DNA of 32,000 nt from Candidatus Heimdallarchaeota archaeon B3_Heim. GTDB taxonomy: Archaea > Asgardarchaeota > Heimdallarchaeia > Hodarchaeales > Hodarchaeaceae. The notes beneath the pieces were generated by a model. The model did not search any database. It saw only the letters and a list, made by a program, of their open reading frames with translations, and had not been told where the DNA came from. The DNA lies in the NCBI GenBank assembly GCA_003144275.1, contig NJBF01000009.1, positions 62,594 through 94,593 of the forward strand. Direction: 5' to 3'. A program made the position numbers and the translations under genes. This document shows positions 9,811-22,385 of the stretch, piece by piece (positions within the stretch are counted from its first letter, which is position 1; each line of letters begins with the position of its first letter).

Positions 9811-9824
9811 AATTCAACATAAAT

Positions 9825-10073
9825 TCAATATGAATCGCGAGATTGGGCAATAAATGTATTTCCACGAAGACTCCAAAGTTCATCTTTGAGCATGTCTCGA
9901 ATCGCAAATCGGATGGCTTCACTTCGGTTTGGATATCTACCCGTCCGTACAAGTTCATCCAGACCACTAACCTGATCATTTGGCAAATGTACTGTGATTA
10001 ATTTCATCATTATTTTATCAACCTCTTTCACTGATATACCTATTATCATGTTCTCTCGCTTTAAAATAGGCAT
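9825..10073 (-). CDS. Ribbon-helix-helix CopG-family regulator (CdrS-like); likely start ATG 10010 or 10007
   Basis: MKLITVHLP..QVSGLDELVRTGRYPNRSEAIRFAIRDML is the archaeal RHH signature. Confidence 0.88.
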   Translation of the reverse strand: MPILKRENMIIGISVKEVDKIMMKLITVHLPNDQVSGLDELVRTGRYPNRSEAIRFAIRDMLKDELWSLRGNTFIAQSRDSY

Positions 10074-10599
10074 AATTCAGGGGTAATATCCCAGTCATTC
10101 GCAGGTAGTACGGATTAATAGCCACACCCATTTTTCATAGATAGAAGGATCGCTTTCAGGTTTATTCTCACACAATTATCAATCTTGACCAAGAGGGATT
10201 TTCCTCAACAGAAGAAGCTTTAGCGGTGAAGTTCTAATCGTGTTAACTAAACTGTACAGATTGGGGAAAGTTAACGATTCGGTCAAAGATTCTAGGGATG
10301 ATATTAGAATTAACATCATTATTTCTCCCAATCGTTCGTATTTTTCATTCTTAAGGAGTATCTACTCATTAGTACTTTCCCGAATCCTTTTATGAGAAAT
10401 GTATCAATTCCTACTATATCGATAATCATGAAGGATTTCAAGGGACTTCGAATAATTTTCAGGTTTTTAAATCAAAAACTCAATTCCCCTAGTAGTGATG
10501 AAATACTTCTTTGTGTAGAAAGAAAAGTGTTCCATTTACACCCAAACTAATTATTCAAGCCCCAAATTTCAAGCAATTTATTATGACACGTGATAATCT

Positions 10600-13500
10600 A
10601 TGACTTTAGTATCTAACGTTCATAAAGATGAAAGGGATCGAAAACAACCAGTGCTCACGCCCAATGCAATGACTGTATTAGAAAAAAGATATCTATTGCA
10701 AAATGACAGAGGGGAGATCATCGAAACGCCAGCTCAGCTCTTTACACGAGTAGCAAAAGCAATTGCAGCAAATGAATCACGCTATGGGCTTGATCCTGCT
10801 ATAATGGAAAAACAGTACTATGATATGATGGTGAATTTTGAGTTTTTACCGAATAGTCCTACTTTAATGAATGCAGGAACAAAAATCAACCAGTTATCGG
10901 CCTGCTTTGTTTTACCCATAGAAGATGATATGACTTCGATCTTTCAAGCGATAAAGAATGCGGCAGTGATTCACAAGTCAGGAGGAGGGACTGGGTTCTC
11001 ATTTTCACGATTGAGACCTACTAATGATAAGGTACAAACTACTGGAGGAGTAGCGTCAGGACCAATCTCTTTCATGACAGTATTTAACTCTGCTACTGAA
11101 ATTATAAAACAAGGGGGGTGTTTATCAGCTGAAAGCTATATTAGGACTAAAAATGGAGTAACAAAAATTGGAAATCTACTGGATTGTCCGCCCATGGGAG
11201 AAAATTTTCCCAATGAGCTTGTTTTTGATGGAGATGCATATAATAACGCGTTAGTTTCAATAGATAATGGTTTAGCAGAAGTCCTCAAGCTTAAAACAGA
11301 ACTTGGCATAGAAATTGATGTAACACTAAATCATCAGGTTGCTTGCATCAATCAAAATGGAGGAAGAGTCTGGAAAAGCGCCAAGGATGTAAAGGAGGGT
11401 GACTGGGTAGTTTTAGTACTAGGAGGGCACAGTGGGAAAGATGTTCTACTTCCAAGGCTGAAAGAACAACACTTCAATGCATCACCCATTAAGATACCAC
11501 AAAAAATGACTCCTGAACTTGGGGAGATTTTAGGCCTATATATGGCAGATGGTTGTATGAGTACAGGGGGAAGAATAATTTTCAGTGTCGATAACAAAGA
11601 TACAGACCTCATACGAAAAATTGAAGATTTAATGAAGACTAGTTTTAGTTTAAAGATAGGAAGAAAAGAAGATAATGATTCTTGGAGCGATTTAGTGTTC
11701 TATTCTCATGACTTATGCAGATTCTTTGAGAAAATGAATTGGAGAAAGGAATCATCATCGAAGGCTTTTATTCCACATGAGATTTTTTTGTCCTCATCAG
11801 AAGTAGCAAAAGCGTTTATACGGGGTCTTTTTGAGGGAGATGGAAATGTTCATTCAGACGGTTATCCAAGATACTATTCAACATCAAAGAAACTAATAAA
11901 ACAATTACAACAACTGTTGCTTGGATTGAATATTGTTTCTAAATACAATAAACGAGAAAAAGGAAAAGATAGTTTTGGAAAAAAACCAATCTATACTTTA
12001 ATGATAAATTCTGATCGTAATATTCAAGTCTTTAAAAAGGAAATTAACTTCTTATCAAAGAGAAAAAAAGAGATGTTAGATACAAGATATCATGAAAAGG
12101 CTTTCGAACAGAATGATATAATACCAAACCAAGAAAGAAGATTGAAAAGTCTTTATACATACGTTGGGAGAGGATCAGGAAAGGGAAGAAAAAATAGAGG
12201 GGCAGATAGAAGATTTTATCGTGCAATTTATCATTATATATCCGATAACCCGTCTTCTAGAAGAAACCTGACAAGAAAAAGACTTCTGAAGTTAAGAGAG
12301 AAATTTGATATCATTAACAATGATGAGCATTTTACTAGAATTTCGGATCCAAAATATTATTATGCCCAAATTAAAGAAAAACAATGGACTCAAGCCTATA
12401 CGATGGATATAGAAGTCCCTTCTTCAGGAAAGTTTGTTGCTAATGGTGTTTTAGTACACAATCGCCGGCGTGGAGCAAACATGGGAGTATTGCGTGTAGA
12501 TCATCCTGATATCCTAGAATTTATTGAATGCAAGCAAGATCTACAGAAATTAAATAATTTTAATATATCCGTGGGTTTAACAGAAGCATTTATGAAAGCA
12601 GTACTTTCTGATACCGATTATCCTTTGATAAATCCCAGAAATAATGAAATAGCTGAAAAGCTCAATGCCCGTACAGTCTTCGAGAAAATAGTCAATATGG
12701 CATATAAATCCGGCGAACCAGGAATACTCTTCTTAGATCAGATAAATGCAGCAAATCCCACTCCTCATATAGGAGAAATCGAGGCAACTAATCCATGTGT
12801 AGCTAAGGATTCATTAATATCAACAGAAAAAGGCATATTAAATATCTTAGAAGTTCCTAATGTTATTAAGACTGCTAGAAAAGGTCTATTTAACTTAGAG
12901 ACTAAAGAAGGATACTCCATTAAGCTCACTTCTGATCATAAAGTTTTAACTCCGAGTGGATGGAAAGAAGCTAAAGACTTACAGGTTGATGAGAAAATCT
13001 GCCTCCAAAGAAATAAAGGAGGATTTGGGTCAGAAGGCAATCAAAAAATAGGACATATTTTGGGGTGGTTTGTAGGAGATGGTTGGACAACTGGAAAGGA
13101 TGGTAGAGCGGTTCTAGCATTCTATGATAAAGATAAAGGAGAACTCTCTGAATATTATGCAAATATCGTTAACGAGGAGCTAAATGCTAATGTTTCTGTC
13201 ATCAAAATTCCTCAAAGAGAAGAAGTAAAATCTGTCAAGATCCTTAGACTGCTCGAGGAGTGGGAAGTCGAGAAAAAGAAGATATCTGCGAGGCTCCTTG
13301 AATCATCTGAGAGTTGTCAAAGAGGGTTTATACAGGCAATTTTTTCGGCTGACGGATCCTTTCAAGGTACTCTGGAAAAAGGTTATAGTGTCCGATTAGC
13401 TCAAAGTAATCTTCCATTACTCAAAAAAGTTCAGCTAATGCTCCTTAATTTCGGAATTGCTTCGAAACTGTATAAAAACCGAGGACCCAAGGGAAAATCT

Positions 13501-15273
13501 CTTTTACCTGATGGTAAAGGTCAGAAAAAGTACTATCCCATTAAGGCTCAACATAAATTAGTAATCTCAAAAGACAATCTTATTCGTTATAAGGATGAAA
13601 TTGGGTTTATTCTCCCTAATAAACAAACAAAAATGATTGATTCCCTAAAATCCTTAATTTCCAGAGGACCTTATAAAGAGAAATTCACAGCACGGGTCAA
13701 TAAATTAACCTACATTAAAGATGATGACGTTTACGATATCGTAGGAACTCCTCAGGGGGGATTTATTGCAAATGGAATTATAGTCCATAATTGTGGCGAG
13801 CAACCCTTATTACCTTATGAATCGTGTAATTTAGGCTCAATCAACCTAGGAAAAATGCTTAAAATCGATTCTAATGAAATTTTTGGTTTTAGTATTGATT
13901 ATGAGAAGCTAGAGCAGATTACTAGGTTATCGGTTAGATTTTTGGATAATGTTATTGATCTCTCTACTTTTCCTTTACCTGAAATTGAAGAAATGACAAA
14001 GGCAAATCGCAAAATTGGCCTCGGAATCATGGGATTTGCAGACCTTTTAATTAAGTTAGGAATACCTTACGATTCAACTGAAGGCACCAACCTTTCTGAG
14101 AAGGTGATGAATTTTGTTCATGATATTGCCCTTCAAGCCTCTCAGGATTTAGCTCATGAACGAGGATCCTTTCCAAATTTTTCTGGAAGTACATTAGCAA
14201 AGAACTATCCTATGATGAGAAATGCTACCTTAACTACTTTGGCACCCACAGGGACTATCTCAATTATTGCTGGTTGTTCCAGTGGGATTGAACCCTTATT
14301 TATGTTAACCTATGAAAGACGAGTCCTTGATGACGATATTCTTGTAGAAGGTTATCCTTTCTTTGTGGAAACCGCAAAGCGATTGAACTTTTATTCTCAG
14401 TCTCTGATGGAACAAGTTGCCGATACAGGTTCTATTGCCGATATTGACGAGATTCCTGAAGAAATCAAGAGGGTATTTGTAACAGCACATGATATAACAC
14501 CCGAGGCACATGTCAGGATGCAGGCAGCCTTTCAAAGTGCTGGGGTGGATAATGCAGTCTCAAAAACAACAAATTTCCCAAATGATGCATCCTCAGAAGA
14601 CATACAGAAAGCGTATTTGCTTGCGTATGAATTGGGATGTAAGGGGATTACAGTATACCGTTCTGGCTCACGAACTTATGACGTTTTGTCCAAAAAGGGA
14701 ACAAATGAGCAAACTACCGAAACAATCAAATCTTTTGAGACCAAGAAACCACGTCAAAGACCTAGTATTACCCAGGGGATTACCGAGCGTGTACGTGTCG
14801 GATGTGGTACAAATTTATTTATTACTATCAATGAGGATGAAGAGGGTTTAACAGAGCTTTTTCTATCTTTAGGAAAGTCAGGAGGATGTGTGGCTTCTCA
14901 TATTGAGGCAATGGGAAGGCTAATTTCCTTAACTTTACGGAGTAGGATTGAGCCTGAAGAGATAATTCTCCAATTGAAGGCAATCAGGTGCCCCTCCCCA
15001 ACTTTTGGCCCCGACGGTCCAGTGCTCTCCTGTGCAGATGCAGTAGCCAAGTCGGTCGAACGGTTTATTGAACTGCATAGTCAAAATGGAAATGGAAAAA
15101 ATGTATCGAGTAGCGAAACATCCAGTAACGAGGAGCACTACGAGCCAGAAACATTATATTTGAGTCATACTACCTCTGGATTGCGACCAGAATGTCCCGA
15201 ATGTGGTAATATTGTAGAACATAGTGAGGGGTGCATTCTTTGTAGAGTTTGTGGATATTCAAAGTGTGGTTAA
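10600..15273 (+). CDS. nrdJ: Class II (B12-dependent) ribonucleotide reductase precursor with two inteins; 777 aa after removing both
   Basis: PNSPTLMNAG, QLSACFV, KSGGGTG, NP/CGEQPL, ESCNLGS, APTGTIS and KGITVYR, with C-terminal TSCPD-like and Zn-ribbon domains. No ATP cone seen. Confidence 0.95.
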   Translation: MTLVSNVHKDERDRKQPVLTPNAMTVLEKRYLLQNDRGEIIETPAQLFTRVAKAIAANESRYGLDPAIMEKQYYDMMVNFEFLPNSPTLMNAGTKINQLSACFVLPIEDDMTSIFQAIKNAAVIHKSGGGTGFSFSRLRPTNDKVQTTGGVASGPISFMTVFNSATEIIKQGGCLSAESYIRTKNGVTKIGNLLDCPPMGENFPNELVFDGDAYNNALVSIDNGLAEVLKLKTELGIEIDVTLNHQVACINQNGGRVWKSAKDVKEGDWVVLVLGGHSGKDVLLPRLKEQHFNASPIKIPQKMTPELGEILGLYMADGCMSTGGRIIFSVDNKDTDLIRKIEDLMKTSFSLKIGRKEDNDSWSDLVFYSHDLCRFFEKMNWRKESSSKAFIPHEIFLSSSEVAKAFIRGLFEGDGNVHSDGYPRYYSTSKKLIKQLQQLLLGLNIVSKYNKREKGKDSFGKKPIYTLMINSDRNIQVFKKEINFLSKRKKEMLDTRYHEKAFEQNDIIPNQERRLKSLYTYVGRGSGKGRKNRGADRRFYRAIYHYISDNPSSRRNLTRKRLLKLREKFDIINNDEHFTRISDPKYYYAQIKEKQWTQAYTMDIEVPSSGKFVANGVLVHNRRRGANMGVLRVDHPDILEFIECKQDLQKLNNFNISVGLTEAFMKAVLSDTDYPLINPRNNEIAEKLNARTVFEKIVNMAYKSGEPGILFLDQINAANPTPHIGEIEATNPCVAKDSLISTEKGILNILEVPNVIKTARKGLFNLETKEGYSIKLTSDHKVLTPSGWKEAKDLQVDEKICLQRNKGGFGSEGNQKIGHILGWFVGDGWTTGKDGRAVLAFYDKDKGELSEYYANIVNEELNANVSVIKIPQREEVKSVKILRLLEEWEVEKKKISARLLESSESCQRGFIQAIFSADGSFQGTLEKGYSVRLAQSNLPLLKKVQLMLLNFGIASKLYKNRGPKGKSLLPDGKGQKKYYPIKAQHKLVISKDNLIRYKDEIGFILPNKQTKMIDSLKSLISRGPYKEKFTARVNKLTYIKDDDVYDIVGTPQGGFIANGIIVHNCGEQPLLPYESCNLGSINLGKMLKIDSNEIFGFSIDYEKLEQITRLSVRFLDNVIDLSTFPLPEIEEMTKANRKIGLGIMGFADLLIKLGIPYDSTEGTNLSEKVMNFVHDIALQASQDLAHERGSFPNFSGSTLAKNYPMMRNATLTTLAPTGTISIIAGCSSGIEPLFMLTYERRVLDDDILVEGYPFFVETAKRLNFYSQSLMEQVADTGSIADIDEIPEEIKRVFVTAHDITPEAHVRMQAAFQSAGVDNAVSKTTNFPNDASSEDIQKAYLLAYELGCKGITVYRSGSRTYDVLSKKGTNEQTTETIKSFETKKPRQRPSITQGITERVRVGCGTNLFITINEDEEGLTELFLSLGKSGGCVASHIEAMGRLISLTLRSRIEPEEIILQLKAIRCPSPTFGPDGPVLSCADAVAKSVERFIELHSQNGNGKNVSSSETSSNEEHYEPETLYLSHTTSGLRPECPECGNIVEHSEGCILCRVCGYSKCG
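11119..12462 (+). mobile_element. Intein 1 (448 aa) with LAGLIDADG homing endonuclease, inserted at KQGG/RRRGANM; +1 residue is Arg
   Basis: Begins CLSAES and ends GVLVHN; LGLYMADG and FIRGLFEGDG motifs. Removal restores IKQGGRRRGANMG. Confidence 0.92.
12796..13791 (+). mobile_element. Intein 2 (332 aa) with LAGLIDADG domain, inserted at the catalytic NP/CGEQ motif
   Basis: Begins CVAKDS and ends GIIVHN followed by Cys; LGWFVGDG and FIQAIFSADG motifs. Confidence 0.94.
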
Positions 15274-15969: not shown

Positions 15970-16614
15970 ATGAATCCAAACCTTCCATTACATTCAAGAT
16001 CGTTGAAAATGAATTGGAAATGGGTACAAAACCTTGGAAATAACGCATGTTTTGCATCTTGTGTCCTTGTTTGTATACGATATTTAAATGCACAGTTAAA
16101 GAGGGAAGACCGTTTTAAAATAACACGAAAGATGAGAAGAGAATTACGTAGAACAAAAAATTTTCCTGTCTTGTCATCTGGAGTTAATGAAAGAAAAACT
16201 CTGCGAATTATGGAAGGTTTCTCAGATTTTCTTAAATTTGAAACTGATTCTCTTAAATCAGTAAAAGACTTACATATTTTAATGCTCCTAAAAACAATTA
16301 ATCCGATAATAGTTGTTTGGGATACCTCATATGGTCAAATAGGCTTAGAATCAACGAGTCATGCTAATATTGTTTATAATACAGATTTTGAAAGGGAAAT
16401 AATTTATTTGATTGACACAAGAAGTACATTTGATCCCCCGATCGTGCCTGTAATCATGGAAACTTTTACGAGAGGATGGCAAAGAACGGAAAACCTTACG
16501 TATATCTTATATAGCAAGGTGGATCCTCCCCTAAAAGTTGTGGATAAACGATTTGCAAAAAACTCTATACAAAATCTTCCTAATTTCTTTAAATCTGAAA
16601 ATATTAAAAAGTGA
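15970..16614 (+). CDS. C39-like papain-fold cysteine peptidase, stand-alone
   Basis: Ordered Q-C-H-D residues: WVQNLGNNACFASC, SHANIVY and IYLIDT. Confidence 0.72.
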   Translation: MNPNLPLHSRSLKMNWKWVQNLGNNACFASCVLVCIRYLNAQLKREDRFKITRKMRRELRRTKNFPVLSSGVNERKTLRIMEGFSDFLKFETDSLKSVKDLHILMLLKTINPIIVVWDTSYGQIGLESTSHANIVYNTDFEREIIYLIDTRSTFDPPIVPVIMETFTRGWQRTENLTYILYSKVDPPLKVVDKRFAKNSIQNLPNFFKSENIKK

Positions 16615-16632
16615 ATAGGTTGTTGATATATA

Positions 16633-17691
16633 ATGAGTAGAATGGAACATCATAATCCTACCAACAAGAAACTTTTAGAAATAAAGGAAATTAAACTAAC
16701 TTTTTTGGATTATGGGGTACAGGTTAATAGAGGTATTAAAAGAGATATTACCAGACACATTGCGAAGTATTATGGGCATAATATCCGTGCAAGAGAGCGT
16801 ATTTATGATTCTCAGTATAATAGATATGCAGTTCCTTTAGATGCAATTCTATTAAATGAAGTTAGAGCATATTCGGGGAAAACAAAATTCTTTCAAATTT
16901 CCTTGAAAAACGTTGGTTCTATTATTATCACGGATGAAGAAAAAATAGATAGATCTGCAACGACTTCGCCTGCTAACCTAAATTCTGCAATAAAACAGAA
17001 ATTTTGGGCTTTTAGAGAAGATCTTTCATCATTTATTCTAAAAGAAAAGCAAGATATTTGGGGAAAAATCCCTAGAATTGCTACTTTCATGAATCCTCTT
17101 TTTGTCGCAATCAATCGGCTTGTAAACTATCAAGAAGTTCCTGTTTCATTCTGGAAACAATTGGAAGAAGAAAAAGAAACAAAACATTGGAAATACATAC
17201 AATTGCTAAGCCAGTTATCAAAATCCTATGTCGTTATTAAAGACGGAAAAACGTTCATAGGGGAGGAGTTAGAGCGTTTAATCGAGAAATATCAAGATTC
17301 TTCAAAAGTGTCTGAAGTAGTGGCAGGAATAATATATGCAGAGAGATTACAAGATTTAGTTCATGATTTCCAATTGCGAAGTATAGCTAATTACGTTTAT
17401 TTACCAAGAACTTATTATTCAGATGCCTTAGACTATGGTGAAAACATTCGAGTACCTGAAAAACATCTTTTACGAAAACACTTTCTCAATAATTCTAGAG
17501 GAACTTATCAGGAGAAACATATGATTTATTTAGAAAATACGTTATCAGAATTGGTAAATCGAAAATGCCTAGAGAAAGAAGAGAAAAACAAGAAAAAAGT
17601 GGTTTTTGGAGAAGAAGATCTTTGGCAGCGACTATACAATCATAGAGAACAAGTTCTCGGACAGGTAGAGGTGGCGGAGGTAATTTCTTGA
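16633..17691 (+). CDS. Hypothetical protein (352 aa), possible C-terminal winged helix
   Basis: Long ORF 18 nt after the peptidase; no family recognised. Confidence 0.75.
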   Translation: MSRMEHHNPTNKKLLEIKEIKLTFLDYGVQVNRGIKRDITRHIAKYYGHNIRARERIYDSQYNRYAVPLDAILLNEVRAYSGKTKFFQISLKNVGSIIITDEEKIDRSATTSPANLNSAIKQKFWAFREDLSSFILKEKQDIWGKIPRIATFMNPLFVAINRLVNYQEVPVSFWKQLEEEKETKHWKYIQLLSQLSKSYVVIKDGKTFIGEELERLIEKYQDSSKVSEVVAGIIYAERLQDLVHDFQLRSIANYVYLPRTYYSDALDYGENIRVPEKHLLRKHFLNNSRGTYQEKHMIYLENTLSELVNRKCLEKEEKNKKKVVFGEEDLWQRLYNHREQVLGQVEVAEVIS

Positions 17692-18269
17692 AAAATCATA
17701 TCTTGGATGATGATATTTATTCTTGCTATAGCCTTACAAGAGATCTTAAAATTTCACCTGAAGATGAGGTAAAAGCTTTAGAAGACTTTTTGAAGTTTTT
17801 TAACTTAGATTATGATGTAGAAAACACAAAGCGTTTGGGAGAAATAATTAATGATTCTTTGTCCCTAATACATTCACCAGAATTTGAAGATGCTCTTGAA
17901 GAACTTAGCCAAATATCATCAGAGATAGTATATATTGGGAGCTCAATTCCTTTAGATTTAGCTACGGCAAAAGAGTTAGTTGCCGTAATTCTTGCCGTTG
18001 CTGATGCTGTTGGAAAAATAGGTATAGCTAGCTGGGGTATTAAAAAATTTGGAGATTTATTTGCAAAGGATATTTATGAGAAGGTAAAAGAAAAATTCCT
18101 TGGAGGGAAGAACAATAATCAATTGGAAGAGAAGAAGGTCTTACGTCTCTATCAAGAAGCTGAAAGAGTTGTTAGGACTGAAGAAGGAAAAGAGTTAGTC
18201 GAGAAGATTTCTTTTCTTTATGAATTAACTCGACCTGAATCTACTTCAGATGATACAAAGAAGCGATAA
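17688..18269 (+). CDS. Hypothetical protein (193 aa) with acidic N-terminus and central hydrophobic/amphipathic helix
   Basis: TTG start overlaps the upstream TGA (TTGA coupling); segment LVAVILAVADAVGKIGIASWGIKKFG. Confidence 0.7.
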   Translation: MKNHILDDDIYSCYSLTRDLKISPEDEVKALEDFLKFFNLDYDVENTKRLGEIINDSLSLIHSPEFEDALEELSQISSEIVYIGSSIPLDLATAKELVAVILAVADAVGKIGIASWGIKKFGDLFAKDIYEKVKEKFLGGKNNNQLEEKKVLRLYQEAERVVRTEEGKELVEKISFLYELTRPESTSDDTKKR

Positions 18270-20966
18270 ACACGCAATTTTGAATGATAACTTTGTCTAA
18301 AAATAACAATTTTAATTATAGAAAATCAAAAGAAATGATCTTATACAATATTATATTGGGGTTTATCCATGGAGAATAGTTTATTTAATATTGGTAAAAT
18401 ATTTGATGCTTGCGATGATGAGCCAACCACCGCACAAATCGATGTTGCAAAAGAATGGGCAAAATTAGTTACTGATAAGAAACTAGAGGATGAAGTGAAG
18501 AACTATTTCAAGTTTGGAAACAAAATTCTCCTCAAACTTCTAGGCTATGATGAAGACGACATTGGATTTGAGGAGAGTGCTGGTAGAAAAAGAGTTGAAT
18601 TTTCTATTAAAGACAATACAAATAAGTTGAAACTTGTAATTGAGTTAAAAGGTCAAAATGTAGATTTGGATAAACCACAGAAACGTGGTAAGAAATTTGA
18701 AAGGTCTCCAGTTGACCAAGCTTTTACTTATGCGATCGAAAATAAAGGTGTACAATGGATTATAGTTAGTAACTACAAAGAAACTAGGTTGTACAATTAC
18801 TATCATAAGAAACGGTTTATTTCTTTCACAGCTGATGATCTGTTAGTAATATCCAACTTGAAGATTTTTCTTTGTCTTCTTTCCAAAACAAATTTCTTGA
18901 TCAATAAATTACCCGATAAAATTCTGAATGATACTCTATTAGTAGATAAGCAATTCACTAAGGATTTTTATAAACTATACCATGCTACAAGATTAGAAAT
19001 AGCACGACAAATCCAGACCGGTAATCCAAGTTTCTCAATTAAGAAAATTGTGTCTTTAACGCAACTAATCCTAAATAGAATTATTTTTATTGCATTTACA
19101 GAGGATAGAAATCTTCTTCCATCTGAAACTTTGATAGAAACAATCTTACCTCCTATAAAAAGTAGAGATGTTTCTAAAACACGTCAAGAAATATGGAGAA
19201 AGTTGAACCTATTATTCGATGATATTAACAACGGAAAAGAAGACAAGGATATATCGCAGTACAATGGAGCAGTTTTTAAAGAGGATCTCAGCTTTTTGAA
19301 AATAGTCGATCTTTTCTCCCATTCAGAAAAGAAGAATATCGCTTATAATCACGGTTTTGATTATTCTGAGATTGAAAAACTGATTGGTGAATATAAATCT
19401 CTGAACCCTATATACAAGAATTTTCTATTGATTAGTCAAACTAATTTCAAGGATGAGAGATCAATAGATATTCTGGGGCATGTTTTTGAGCAGTCGATAT
19501 TGGATATTGAAAGAATTGCCGATATCGGCCTAGATAAGATTATCGAGGAAACCTTAAGCAGATCGAAAAAGAAAGGAAAGAGTAAAAAACGAAAAAGTGA
19601 GGGTATCTTCTATACACCAGAGATGGTAACTCTTGAAATAACGAAAACTGCACTTATCCGCTATTTATCAGATGATGATAAAATCACAACCATAGAAGGA
19701 TTGATAAATGAATTTGAAGGAAATATTACCTCTCTCGAAGACAAACTTACTAACATCAAAATTACTGACATTGCCTGCGGATCTGGAGCCTTTCTAAGCC
19801 AATTGACCAATCTTATTCTTGAATTATTCGAAAAAATACATCAATTGAAAATTGACCAAGGATTTTTTGTTGACGATCCTCTAAAAGAATTTTTTGATCC
19901 CTCACTAAAAAAGATGGAAATTGTTACAAATAATATTTTTGGTGCTGATATCAGCTCACAAGCAATTGAGATTGCTAAACTCTCCCTATTCCTTAAAATT
20001 GCACATAAAAAAGACAAGCTTCCTGATTTAGATTCTAATTTTACTGTTGGAAACAGTGTTATATCGGATAGCTCTGTTGTAACTGATGCAATTGATTGGG
20101 AAAACCTTACTCCCAATAAATTCCATATAATCGTTATTAATCCACCTTACATTCCGACTGAAATGCTACCAGAAGGAGATCGCTCCTATTTTTCTGGTAA
20201 TTTTGCGGTTTCAGGAAAATATGACACTTCTGTTATTTTTTTACAAAAAGCTTTAGGATTGTTGGAAGATGGAGGGGTTTTGGGAGCAATTGTACCCTTA
20301 ACATGGCAAACTGGAGTGAATTACAGATTATTTAGAGAAGAGATCTTCAAAATTTCGAAGATAATAACATTGATCAATCTTCCGTTTGATATTTTCCCAG
20401 ATGCATATGTTGATACAGGAATTGTAATATTAGAAAAGACCCCACCGTCACAAGATGATAGTTTCCGTGCTTATCAGTTTGATAAGCGAGCACGTGTTGC
20501 TACTCTGCACATTGACGAATGGGAAACGATTCCGTTCCAATATGTGCTAGAATATGAGGGTAAAAACGTATTTACTACAAAAGCTTTCTATACGTTTCAA
20601 AATAAGATTAAGCTCCTTTTTGAAGGGGGTAAGGCCAAGAAACTTGGAGACTTAACTGTATCAAGGCAGGGTTATTACGCTAGTAGACTTCAAACGAAGA
20701 AAACTCAACCTGATATTAATCACATCCCCTTCTATACAAAGGGCTTAGCCTTGCGTCATTTCGTAATCCCCCACTTAAGTGAATTTGTAGATATAAATGA
20801 ATGGGAAAGACTCAAACCATTTTATTGTACCCCAAAATTGTTCATTCGTAGAATAATTAATAGACAGGATAGATTAATGGCGTTCTATGTTGAACCAGAC
20901 CTATTAACAACAAAAGATTATAATCCATTTGTTCTAATAAAAGAGTCTGAGTGGTATAAAAGCTTG

Positions 20967-22385
20967 CTCGAATGATGAGTAAGTCACCATCGGGGAGTAA
21001 TGACGGAGCTGACCCACAAGCATTTAACTTCTGAACCAAATGTAATTCTATGTCACCAAAACAAGAAATACACCCGTTAGAAAACGAACTCCGTCACTAT
21101 CCTTCACGGACAGTCCAAGTTTTTAAAACTACCCATCTGACCCGTATTCTCAGGAAACACATTCACGAGACAGATGCCGACAAAAATCGGAAAGAATTTA
21201 GCTGTGAACAGTGGATTAAAAGTCTTTTCTTGATGCAGATTCATAAGTTCGAAGCGGTACGACCCTTTGTTCGTCAGCTCGAGCAAAACAAATCTTGGCA
21301 AGCGATTTGCGGTTATCAGGGAAACATTCCGACTCAAGGGCAGTACTCCCGAAGAATTCCTGATCAGCGCGTTCAGGAGGTGTTAGTACGGATGTTCCAG
21401 ACTTATCAACATTTAATTCCCTTGACACACAAGCAATTACCTACTACGCCCTCGAAGGCTCAATTTACCCTCCTTCAACAGGGGTATTATCCATTTCGGA
21501 TGGATTGTACCAGTTTAAAGTTATCTCCAGACCGTTATCCTTATGCTACCTGGGGGTACGTAGCCAGCAAAAAACAGCCTTTCCCTAGTGCGCGAATACA
21601 CACAGTTCAGGAAGGAATTCACGGATTCATTGCTAATTATGGACCATCGGGAGGCCATGAACATGAATCTCCCGTAGCTGAGGTACTATTGAATGAAACC
21701 GAAGAAATCAGTAGTTGGCTGTCTATTAATTCCATTGCAGATCAACCTCGACCATTTATAATATTTGATCGGGGATACTGGAAGTTAGCTCGTTTTCAGG
21801 ACTTAGATACTCGAGGATGGGGATGGAGCATTCCTTGGAAGAAACGAACTCTAATTGGAGTTCAAATAGAGATATTAAAATTTCCTCAAGCTGAGGATGA
21901 TCCCCTGGAAATTCTAGTCTGGGGATCAAACACTGAAAAACCGTGGCGTCGAATTATTGGTAAGCTAAATTCATCTAGCGATAGTTTCTGGGATGTATTT
22001 ACCAATGATTTGTCCCTTCCTCCCTTAACGGTGCTTCAACTCCAAAAGGAACGCTGGGAGATCGAAACTTTGTTTCAATGGATTAAACAACACACCACAA
22101 TTAAACGTCCGTTGGGGAAATCTTGGATGAGTTTTATCACCCATTGTCTGTTAGTGACCTTATTACAGATCATCCTCTTTTATTATCTCCTCCTTCTTGG
22201 ATTTACTCGTTGGCAAGACCATTTAACTTTATTACTAGAAAATTTACGTTATTCAGACTTAGAGCTTTGGCCTGATTGTTACTTGATAGCAGAAAGGTTG
22301 TAATTAATGTCAGGTGATAAAAATGTGATGATATAATCCATTAGACTTAAAAAGGCCAGTGAAGTGAAGTTACTCATCAATCGAG
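20967..22385 (+). mobile_element. IS4-family insertion sequence, 1419 bp
   Basis: 16-bp TIRs CTCGAATGATGAGTAA (20967-20982) and TTACTCATCAATCGAG (22370-22385) with one mismatch; perfect 9-bp TSD AAAAGCTTG at 20958-20966 and 22386-22394. Confidence 0.95.
21050..22303 (+). CDS. IS4-family DDE transposase
   Basis: N-terminal FSCEQWIKSLFLMQ (DUF4372-like), RMDCT, IFDRGY and ERWEIETLFQWIKQH motifs. Confidence 0.92.
   Translation: MSPKQEIHPLENELRHYPSRTVQVFKTTHLTRILRKHIHETDADKNRKEFSCEQWIKSLFLMQIHKFEAVRPFVRQLEQNKSWQAICGYQGNIPTQGQYSRRIPDQRVQEVLVRMFQTYQHLIPLTHKQLPTTPSKAQFTLLQQGYYPFRMDCTSLKLSPDRYPYATWGYVASKKQPFPSARIHTVQEGIHGFIANYGPSGGHEHESPVAEVLLNETEEISSWLSINSIADQPRPFIIFDRGYWKLARFQDLDTRGWGWSIPWKKRTLIGVQIEILKFPQAEDDPLEILVWGSNTEKPWRRIIGKLNSSSDSFWDVFTNDLSLPPLTVLQLQKERWEIETLFQWIKQHTTIKRPLGKSWMSFITHCLLVTLLQIILFYYLLLLGFTRWQDHLTLLLENLRYSDLELWPDCYLIAERL

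Follow-up and report, generated by a model that had tools for sequence, protein, structure and literature searches.

Textbook protein splicing uses a Cys, Ser or Thr at the first position of the C-extein (+1) in its steps 2 and 4, and one of these residues at +1 is held to be necessary for every described class of inteins (PMC4031507). The intein classes without an N-terminal nucleophile provide a precedent for splicing by a rerouted mechanism after the loss of one canonical nucleophile, but they still need Cys, Ser or Thr at +1. HINT domains that start with Cys, end in His-Asn and have no nucleophile at +1 are defined as type A bacterial intein-like domains (BILs), and for these a route was proposed that consists of thioester formation, Asn cyclisation and attack by the freed amine (PMC4031507; for the work on type A BILs see Amitai 2003, Dassa 2004 and Aranko 2013, as cited in PMC4031507 and PMC7664689). 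Here we describe an intein with the arrangement opposite to that of the classes lacking the N-terminal nucleophile: Cys1 is kept and the +1 nucleophile is missing. It is the first of two inteins (intein 1) in nrdJ, the gene of a class II (adenosylcobalamin-dependent) ribonucleotide reductase (RNR), in a 32,000-nucleotide stretch of the Hodarchaeales (Asgard) archaeon Candidatus Heimdallarchaeota archaeon B3_Heim (contig NJBF01000009.1, positions 62,594 to 94,593; the whole stretch is called the window). Intein 1 is followed by Arg, and comparison with its relatives suggests that the enzyme is probably matured via a route so far undescribed for inteins.

A single frame of 1557 amino acids without interruption spans both inteins (10600-15273, + strand). 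The features of the gene, in positions of the window, are the following.

10600..15273, + strand: nrdJ, class II (adenosylcobalamin-dependent) RNR precursor with two inteins, 1557 aa (open reading frame and Pfam)
10600..11118, + strand: N-extein, 173 aa, C-terminus ...TEIIKQGG, Gly-Gly being positions -2/-1
11119..12462, + strand: intein 1, residues 174-621, 448 aa, HINT and LAGLIDADG homing endonuclease
11119..11121, + strand: Cys1 (TGT), N-terminal nucleophile of intein 1
11323..11334, + strand: block B of intein 1, T-L-N-H (Thr69 ... His72)
11530..11553, + strand: LAGLIDADG motif 1 of intein 1, LGLYMADG (Asp144) (Pfam PF14528, conservation)
11821..11844, + strand: LAGLIDADG motif 2 of intein 1, RGLFEGDG (Asp241) (conservation)
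12451..12462, + strand: block G end of intein 1, Leu-Val-His-Asn, His447-Asn448 being the canonical terminal pair
12463..12465, + strand: +1 codon CGC (Arg); position x, variable in QGG-x-RRGA, with Arg native to the host
12463..12795, + strand: middle extein, 111 aa (RRRGANMG ... EATNP)
12796..13791, + strand: intein 2, residues 733-1064, 332 aa (Cys1 ... Val-His-Asn)
13792..15273, + strand: C-extein, comprising the remaining barrel, the TSCPD domain and the stop codon

The preliminary description of this locus stated that intein 1 ends in His-Asn and is followed directly by RRRG, and the DNA bears this out: positions 12457-12474 read CAC AAT CGC CGG CGT GGA (H N / R R R G), inside the one open frame. 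Pfam searches of the precursor detected the all-alpha and barrel domains of RNR, TSCPD, Intein_splicing and LAGLIDADG_3 (PF00317, PF02867, PF12637, PF14890 and PF14528). It had also been stated that the exteins rebuild a normal sequence. Removal of both inteins in silico gave a product of 777 amino acids that aligned gap-free, with 88% identity, to the intein-free Hodarchaeales NrdJ P0264, in agreement with that statement; P0264 itself scores above cut-off with NF006417 (1129 bits vs cut-off 961) and TIGR02504, the curated models of B12-dependent RNR. The product reads ...TEIIKQGGRRRGANMGV... across junction 1 and ...ATNPCGEQ... across junction 2, where the NPCGE thiyl-radical loop is rebuilt. 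Intein 2 is canonical, its +1 residue being the Cys of the NPCGE motif. Because the spliced product aligns gap-free to P0264, the boundaries of intein 1 are unambiguous and its +1 residue is Arg. Shifted boundaries were considered and rejected: a gap-free NrdJ results only from QGG/C...HN/R, and the ends of the insert and its flanks have no residues in common. The N-extein aligns to residues 125-204 of Thermotoga maritima NrdJ (1xje), placing QGG at about residues 203-205 and the insertion of intein 1 at about residues 203-206 of that protein, a region that we take to be loop 2, the specificity loop.

The codon CGC lies one substitution from both TGC (Cys) and AGC (Ser), and the preliminary description had therefore entertained a base-call error or a recent point mutation at 12463. 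We searched the N-extein against 24 genomes of the same order and read the DNA at the junction; all matching loci belong to the genus of the window. The site is occupied by intein 1 in four genomes of the genus (the window's own, G000, and G011, G015 and G017) and empty at 14 loci, and IIKQGG-R-RRGANMG is encoded at every occupied and every empty locus. The other three occupied alleles use CGT, CGG and CGA for the Arg that is CGC in the window, and the empty alleles use CGT, AGA, AGG, CGC, CGA and CGG, so that six different Arg codons encode this residue across the genus. More distant members of the intein family have Lys, Ile, Met or Val at this position. Arg at 14 empty and three other occupied loci, in six codons, refutes a miscall or a recent mutation, to which we give practically no weight.

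The residue x of QGG-x-RRGA was also read in 113 empty-site NrdJ proteins retrieved by similarity to the N-extein, and found to be Thr in 58, Arg in 41, Lys in 12, Ala in one and Met in one; in empty-site NrdJ of Hodarchaeales and Heimdall-type archaea it is Arg in all but one, which has Lys. These comparisons indicate that the +1 Arg is the host's own, ancestral and selectively kept residue. They also show that presence or absence of intein 1 is polymorphic inside one genus, with exteins identical at the junction loop. This polymorphism matches the prediction of homing or of precise loss, indicating that intein 1 has been mobile recently.

An Arg or Lys at +1 recurs widely among homologues, a point that had been put forward as a check on the junction. 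In a homologue search with residues 150-650 as query, the +1 residue was read wherever an intein could be extracted, the window's own included: among 119 inteins at the same site it is Lys in 91, Arg in 16, Ile in seven, Met in one and Thr in four. With only the intein as query, 6333 matches were obtained among all 50%-identity representatives, and the junctions of the best 150 were examined. Among these 150, inteins at QGG/x-RRGA with K, R, I, M or V as x always terminate in [V/I/L]-His-Asn, those that share the site but are more distant terminate in Ser/Thr-His-Asn followed by Thr or Ser, and relatives at other sites have Ser, Thr or Cys at +1. A FastTree phylogeny was computed for 161 full-length inteins. 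The 123 that lack a +1 nucleophile all belong to one clade of 124 tips with support 0.994, and all 37 relatives outside it, whether at this site or at others, have Ser or Thr at +1. IQ-TREE (LG+C20, quick; 85 representatives, last four columns removed) required two changes of the label, as few as in none of 500 shuffles, and 17 changes in the identity of the +1 residue over the whole tree. Within the clade the +1 residue matches that of intein-free NrdJ from the same host groups, and so it follows the host. Together these data indicate that the missing +1 nucleophile is a trait of one old and widespread intein lineage.

The lone Ser/Thr case inside the clade is P0126 (1111 aa), a single representative on a long branch. 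It reads KQG/C...VHN/SFRRGAMMG: its intein is shifted upstream by one residue, and Ser takes the place of the second Gly in QGG. By its sequence, P0126 has apparently regained a +1 nucleophile via a shifted junction.

The clade is found in named species genomes of the Asgard groups Hod-, Hermod-, Heimdall- and Promethearchaeota, and in Micrarchaeota, Ca. Culexmicrobium, Hydrothermarchaeales, Ca. Methanoperedens, Aenigmatarchaeota, Woesearchaeota, Thermoplasmata, Methanomassiliicoccales, Nitrososphaeria and Nanobdellota. A few bacterial bins also carry it, namely of Caldilineae, Anaerolineae, Patescibacteria and one of Acidobacteria (L060, L062, L043 and L054), which suggests transfer of the NrdJ allele or of the intein from archaea to bacteria, or mis-binning. 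Soil archaeal bins share their junction residues with the Acidobacteria-labelled bin (L054), which may be mis-binned. Several Asgard NrdJ precursors (P0002, P0003, P0011, P0014 and P0030) reach 2300-2570 amino acids with several inteins per gene, of the Pfam types Hom_end, PT-HINT, LAGLIDADG_3 and Hint_2.

The preliminary description had further considered that the gene might be a dead allele, and had proposed to check whether the genome has another RNR. The genome of the window (G000, 94% complete) contains one PF02867 locus, the intein-bearing nrdJ, and neither a second PF02867 locus nor a PF13597 (NrdD) match was found in it. In G015 (96% complete) there is likewise one PF02867 locus and no NrdD, and the intein without a +1 nucleophile is the only intein in the gene. 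The search also covered three closed genomes, those of Ca. Heimdallarchaeum aukensis (CP084166.1), a Micrarchaeota chromosome (OY970229.1) and Nanobdellota archaeon YN1 (AP031373.1); in each of them PF02867 matches one gene alone, which bears the intein, and PF13597 matches none. Of these, YN1 is a cultivated archaeon, grown together with Sulfurisphaera ohwakuensis (PMC11420986). The enzyme is not the sole RNR in every carrier, since G017 has NrdD besides its intein-bearing gene. This NrdD, a class III RNR (G017:C55:3636-10220), lies in a frame of 2466 amino acids with its Pfam match split into five pieces, and probably also contains several inteins.

A pseudogene, in an organism that uses another RNR or salvage, would be helped by the 94% completeness of the genome, in which a second RNR could be missed, and by the NrdD of the intein-carrying genus-mate G017. 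Against it stand 1557 open codons, exteins that keep their gap-free match to the intein-free orthologue with NPCGE intact, the lack of any other RNR found in G000, G015 and the three closed genomes, and more than 120 independent intact copies of the intein. Compared with the intein of the genus-mate G017, intein 1 shows nonsynonymous divergence (dN) of 0.112 and synonymous divergence (dS) of 0.90, a dN/dS of about 0.12, and the sequences indicate that intein and exteins alike are under purifying selection. The idea of a dead allele is thereby refuted, and we regard it as scarcely credible.

We computed conservation over the 123 members of the clade, with the 37 relatives bearing a +1 nucleophile as the comparison set. 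Cys1 is present in 100% of both sets. In the clade, Thr69 and His72 of block B are conserved in 100% and 98%, Asp430 of block F in 88%, His447 and Asn448 in 100%, and the LAGLIDADG aspartates Asp144 and Asp241 in 97% and 99%. Other residues distinguish the clade from the comparison set: Val446 is found in 95% of the clade vs 0% of the 37 relatives, which have Ser, Thr or Asn there, Arg9 in 93% vs 0%, and Leu445 and Ser6 occur in nearly every member of the clade and in none of the 37.

One member, P0024 (L039, of Ca. Heimdallarchaeum endolithica type), carries a deletion of 67 amino acids in the endonuclease region and a change of Cys146 to Phe, and still has Cys1, TYNH and VHN/R; this copy looks like a stage of endonuclease decay. 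The explanation that intein 1 is never removed, the RNR working with the insertion of 448 amino acids or being regulated by it, would leave a conserved loop beside the active site interrupted. It would also make needless the 98-100% conservation of the splicing residues at both ends, which are kept even in the copy with the 67-residue deletion, and we consider a permanent insert very improbable.

LAGLIDADG endonucleases occur in introns too, which is the one point in favour of removal of the insert at the RNA level, with protein splicing unneeded. The insert is, however, in frame and a complete HINT domain, its terminal catalytic residues are conserved as protein, its dN/dS is the low value given above, and genus-mates differ freely from one another at the synonymous sites of the junction codons. 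In addition, no Rfam family reached its gathering score anywhere in the window. An intron is thus a negligible alternative.

An AlphaFold2 (AF2) model of intein 1 with flanks of eight residues had a pLDDT of 87.7 and a pTM of 0.89, and its best Foldseek matches were the TliVMA intein (7qss; E 1e-25, TMq 0.68) and PI-PfuI, the RNR intein of P. furiosus (1dq3; E 1e-18, TMq 0.60), with PI-PkoII and PI-SceI also among them. The predicted fold is that of an ordinary endonuclease-bearing intein, although TliVMA and PI-PfuI share only 16-20% sequence identity with intein 1 and occupy different insertion sites. A sequence search of the PDB returned no close solved relative of the clade.

Intein 1 has the features of a class 1 intein, that is blocks A, B, F and G, Cys1, His-Asn and an in-frame insertion with empty-site alleles, and the two LAGLIDADG motifs, each with its acidic residue, predict a homing endonuclease. 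What it lacks is Cys, Ser or Thr at +1, where it has Arg and where the 123 inteins have K, R, I, M or V. The canonical class 1 sisters at the same site, QGG/(T/S)RRGA (for example P0130, P0140, P0202 and P0249), share the insertion point, HINT and LAGLIDADG domains, Cys1, TxxH and His-Asn, and are homologous to the clade over their full length at 25-40% identity. They differ from it in having Thr or Ser at +1 and an SHN or THN end, whereas in the clade +1 is K, R, I, M or V and His-Asn is preceded by Val, Ile or Leu. On phylogeny and anatomy the element classifies as an intein, yet it lacks a feature by which every described intein class is defined.

The definition of type A BILs also fits intein 1. 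BILs, however, are bacterial domains that give mostly cleavage products, whereas intein 1 has a homing endonuclease, a conserved site in an essential enzyme and empty-site alleles; unlike BILs, the clade is nested phylogenetically among true inteins and its hosts are mostly archaeal. BILs reportedly have neither an endonuclease nor a conserved insertion site in an essential protein. Pfam searches of the precursor gave no match to PF07591 or PF13403, which we take to be the BIL-related HINT models.

The preliminary description had listed non-canonical maturation of an essential enzyme among its readings. This is supported by the clade of 123 inteins, the intact gene, purifying selection and the finding of this RNR as the only one in the genome. 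The intein has not lost Cys1, block B or the terminal His-Asn, and so presumably still forms the thioester and cyclises its Asn. We propose that an N-S acyl shift at Cys1 would give a thioester of Gly173, and that cyclisation of Asn448 would free the C-extein with an alpha-amino group on Arg+1. This amine, kept near by the active site of the intein and by the folding RNR barrel, would attack the unhindered glycyl thioester and yield the normal peptide bond IKQGG-RRRGANMG, with no branched intermediate. We put the probability at about one half that maturation proceeds by such direct aminolysis of the Cys1 thioester, which would be the type A BIL route operating in a true intein of an essential enzyme. 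We favour aminolysis because the Gly carbonyl is unhindered, because both ends would be held in the active site and in one barrel, and because the loops of occupied and empty alleles are identical.

Several points weigh against this proposal. Type A BILs give mainly cleavage products over spliced product (PMC4031507, PMC7664689), a precedent that points to a possibly low efficiency of aminolysis. In one BIL, splicing was absent altogether and appeared only once Cys had been introduced at +1 (PMC4031507). The residues Val446, Leu445, Arg9 and Ser6 come from a single clade, that is from one ancestor, and are a lead, not evidence of adaptation. Finally, the intein of YN1 (L066:2501-3793; 431 aa, 35% identical to intein 1, terminating IHN/K, in a closed genome of 0.77 Mb) is divergent: Glu replaces the His of block B (TYDE), His stands at the position of the block F Asp, and the first LAGLIDADG motif has Lys instead of its Asp. 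Members of the clade may therefore differ in their chemistry.

The BIL precedent also speaks for cleavage only. Here hydrolysis of the thioester at Cys1 together with Asn cyclisation would leave an N-fragment of 173 amino acids and a C-fragment that associate non-covalently as a nicked, active RNR. HINT relatives without a +1 nucleophile yield mostly cleaved products (PMC4031507, PMC7664689), cleavage requires the same conserved residues (Cys1 and His-Asn), and both exteins belong to one barrel and could stay associated. A fragmented RNR that reassembles has reportedly been described (PMC3045599). On the other hand, the break would disrupt the conserved QGG-x-RRGA loop, where a permanent cut would be remarkable in its own right. 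Occupied and empty alleles of one genus have this loop in identical form, which suggests that their mature products are equivalent. We regard cleavage without ligation as the main rival, a serious but rather unlikely alternative.

Splicing by some other route would depend on another nucleophile, or on ligation or processing of the precursor by a host factor, and its chemistry would be undescribed for any HINT domain. The clade's own nearly fixed residues beside both junctions, Arg9 and Val446 with the frequencies given above, speak for such a route. K, R, I, M or V at +1, however, excludes the +1 side chain as nucleophile, no Cys, Ser or Thr occurs among the first 20 residues of the C-extein after intein 1, and a dedicated host factor is at odds with the spread of the intein over very different hosts, including tiny-genome DPANN archaea and Chloroflexota bacteria. 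We think such a route improbable.

Three specific chemistries were considered and rejected. A Lys side chain as nucleophile is out, as the +1 residue is also R, I, M or V, and a nearby downstream nucleophile is out, given the same 20 residues. Chemistry of the class 3 type (no N-terminal nucleophile and an obligate block F Cys, that of the WCT motif) is out, as Cys1 is invariant and block F reads YTMDIEV.

In the neighbourhood of nrdJ, a stretch of 790 nucleotides upstream (9811-10599) contains no open reading frame of at least 90 amino acids. Directly downstream (15970-18269) lie three consecutive open reading frames of 214, 352 and 193 amino acids with no Pfam match at E <= 0.001. These are followed at 18369-22303 by an Eco57I/MmeI-type N6 DNA methylase (868 aa) immediately before a DDE transposase (417 aa), which together may be a mobile restriction-modification module.

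Full-text literature searches, whose coverage leaves out most subscription journals, turned up no account of RNR inteins that lack a +1 nucleophile. The clade is a large, old and mobile intein lineage that breaks the +1 rule inside an essential enzyme, often the only RNR of the genome. It might, we suggest tentatively and at slightly less than even odds, represent a fourth mechanistic class of inteins, in which efficient splicing proceeds by direct attack of the alpha-amine of the C-extein on the Cys1 thioester, with no side-chain nucleophile at +1. If so, colonisation of a conserved site with Arg, Lys, Ile, Met or Val at +1 would become possible. The question is directly testable, with the cultivated Nanobdellota archaeon YN1 and with Asgard sequences that are easily expressed. 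If splicing is true, the textbook mechanism needs a further class, and protein engineering gains a lead to ligation without a Cys, Ser or Thr scar, the clade being a natural template for traceless junctions at other residues. If there is cleavage only, class II RNR can function with a conserved loop beside the active site broken, and inteins can survive as inserts that remove themselves without joining the exteins. In both cases the lineage shows how a selfish element can free itself from the restriction of inteins to sites with a nucleophile at +1.

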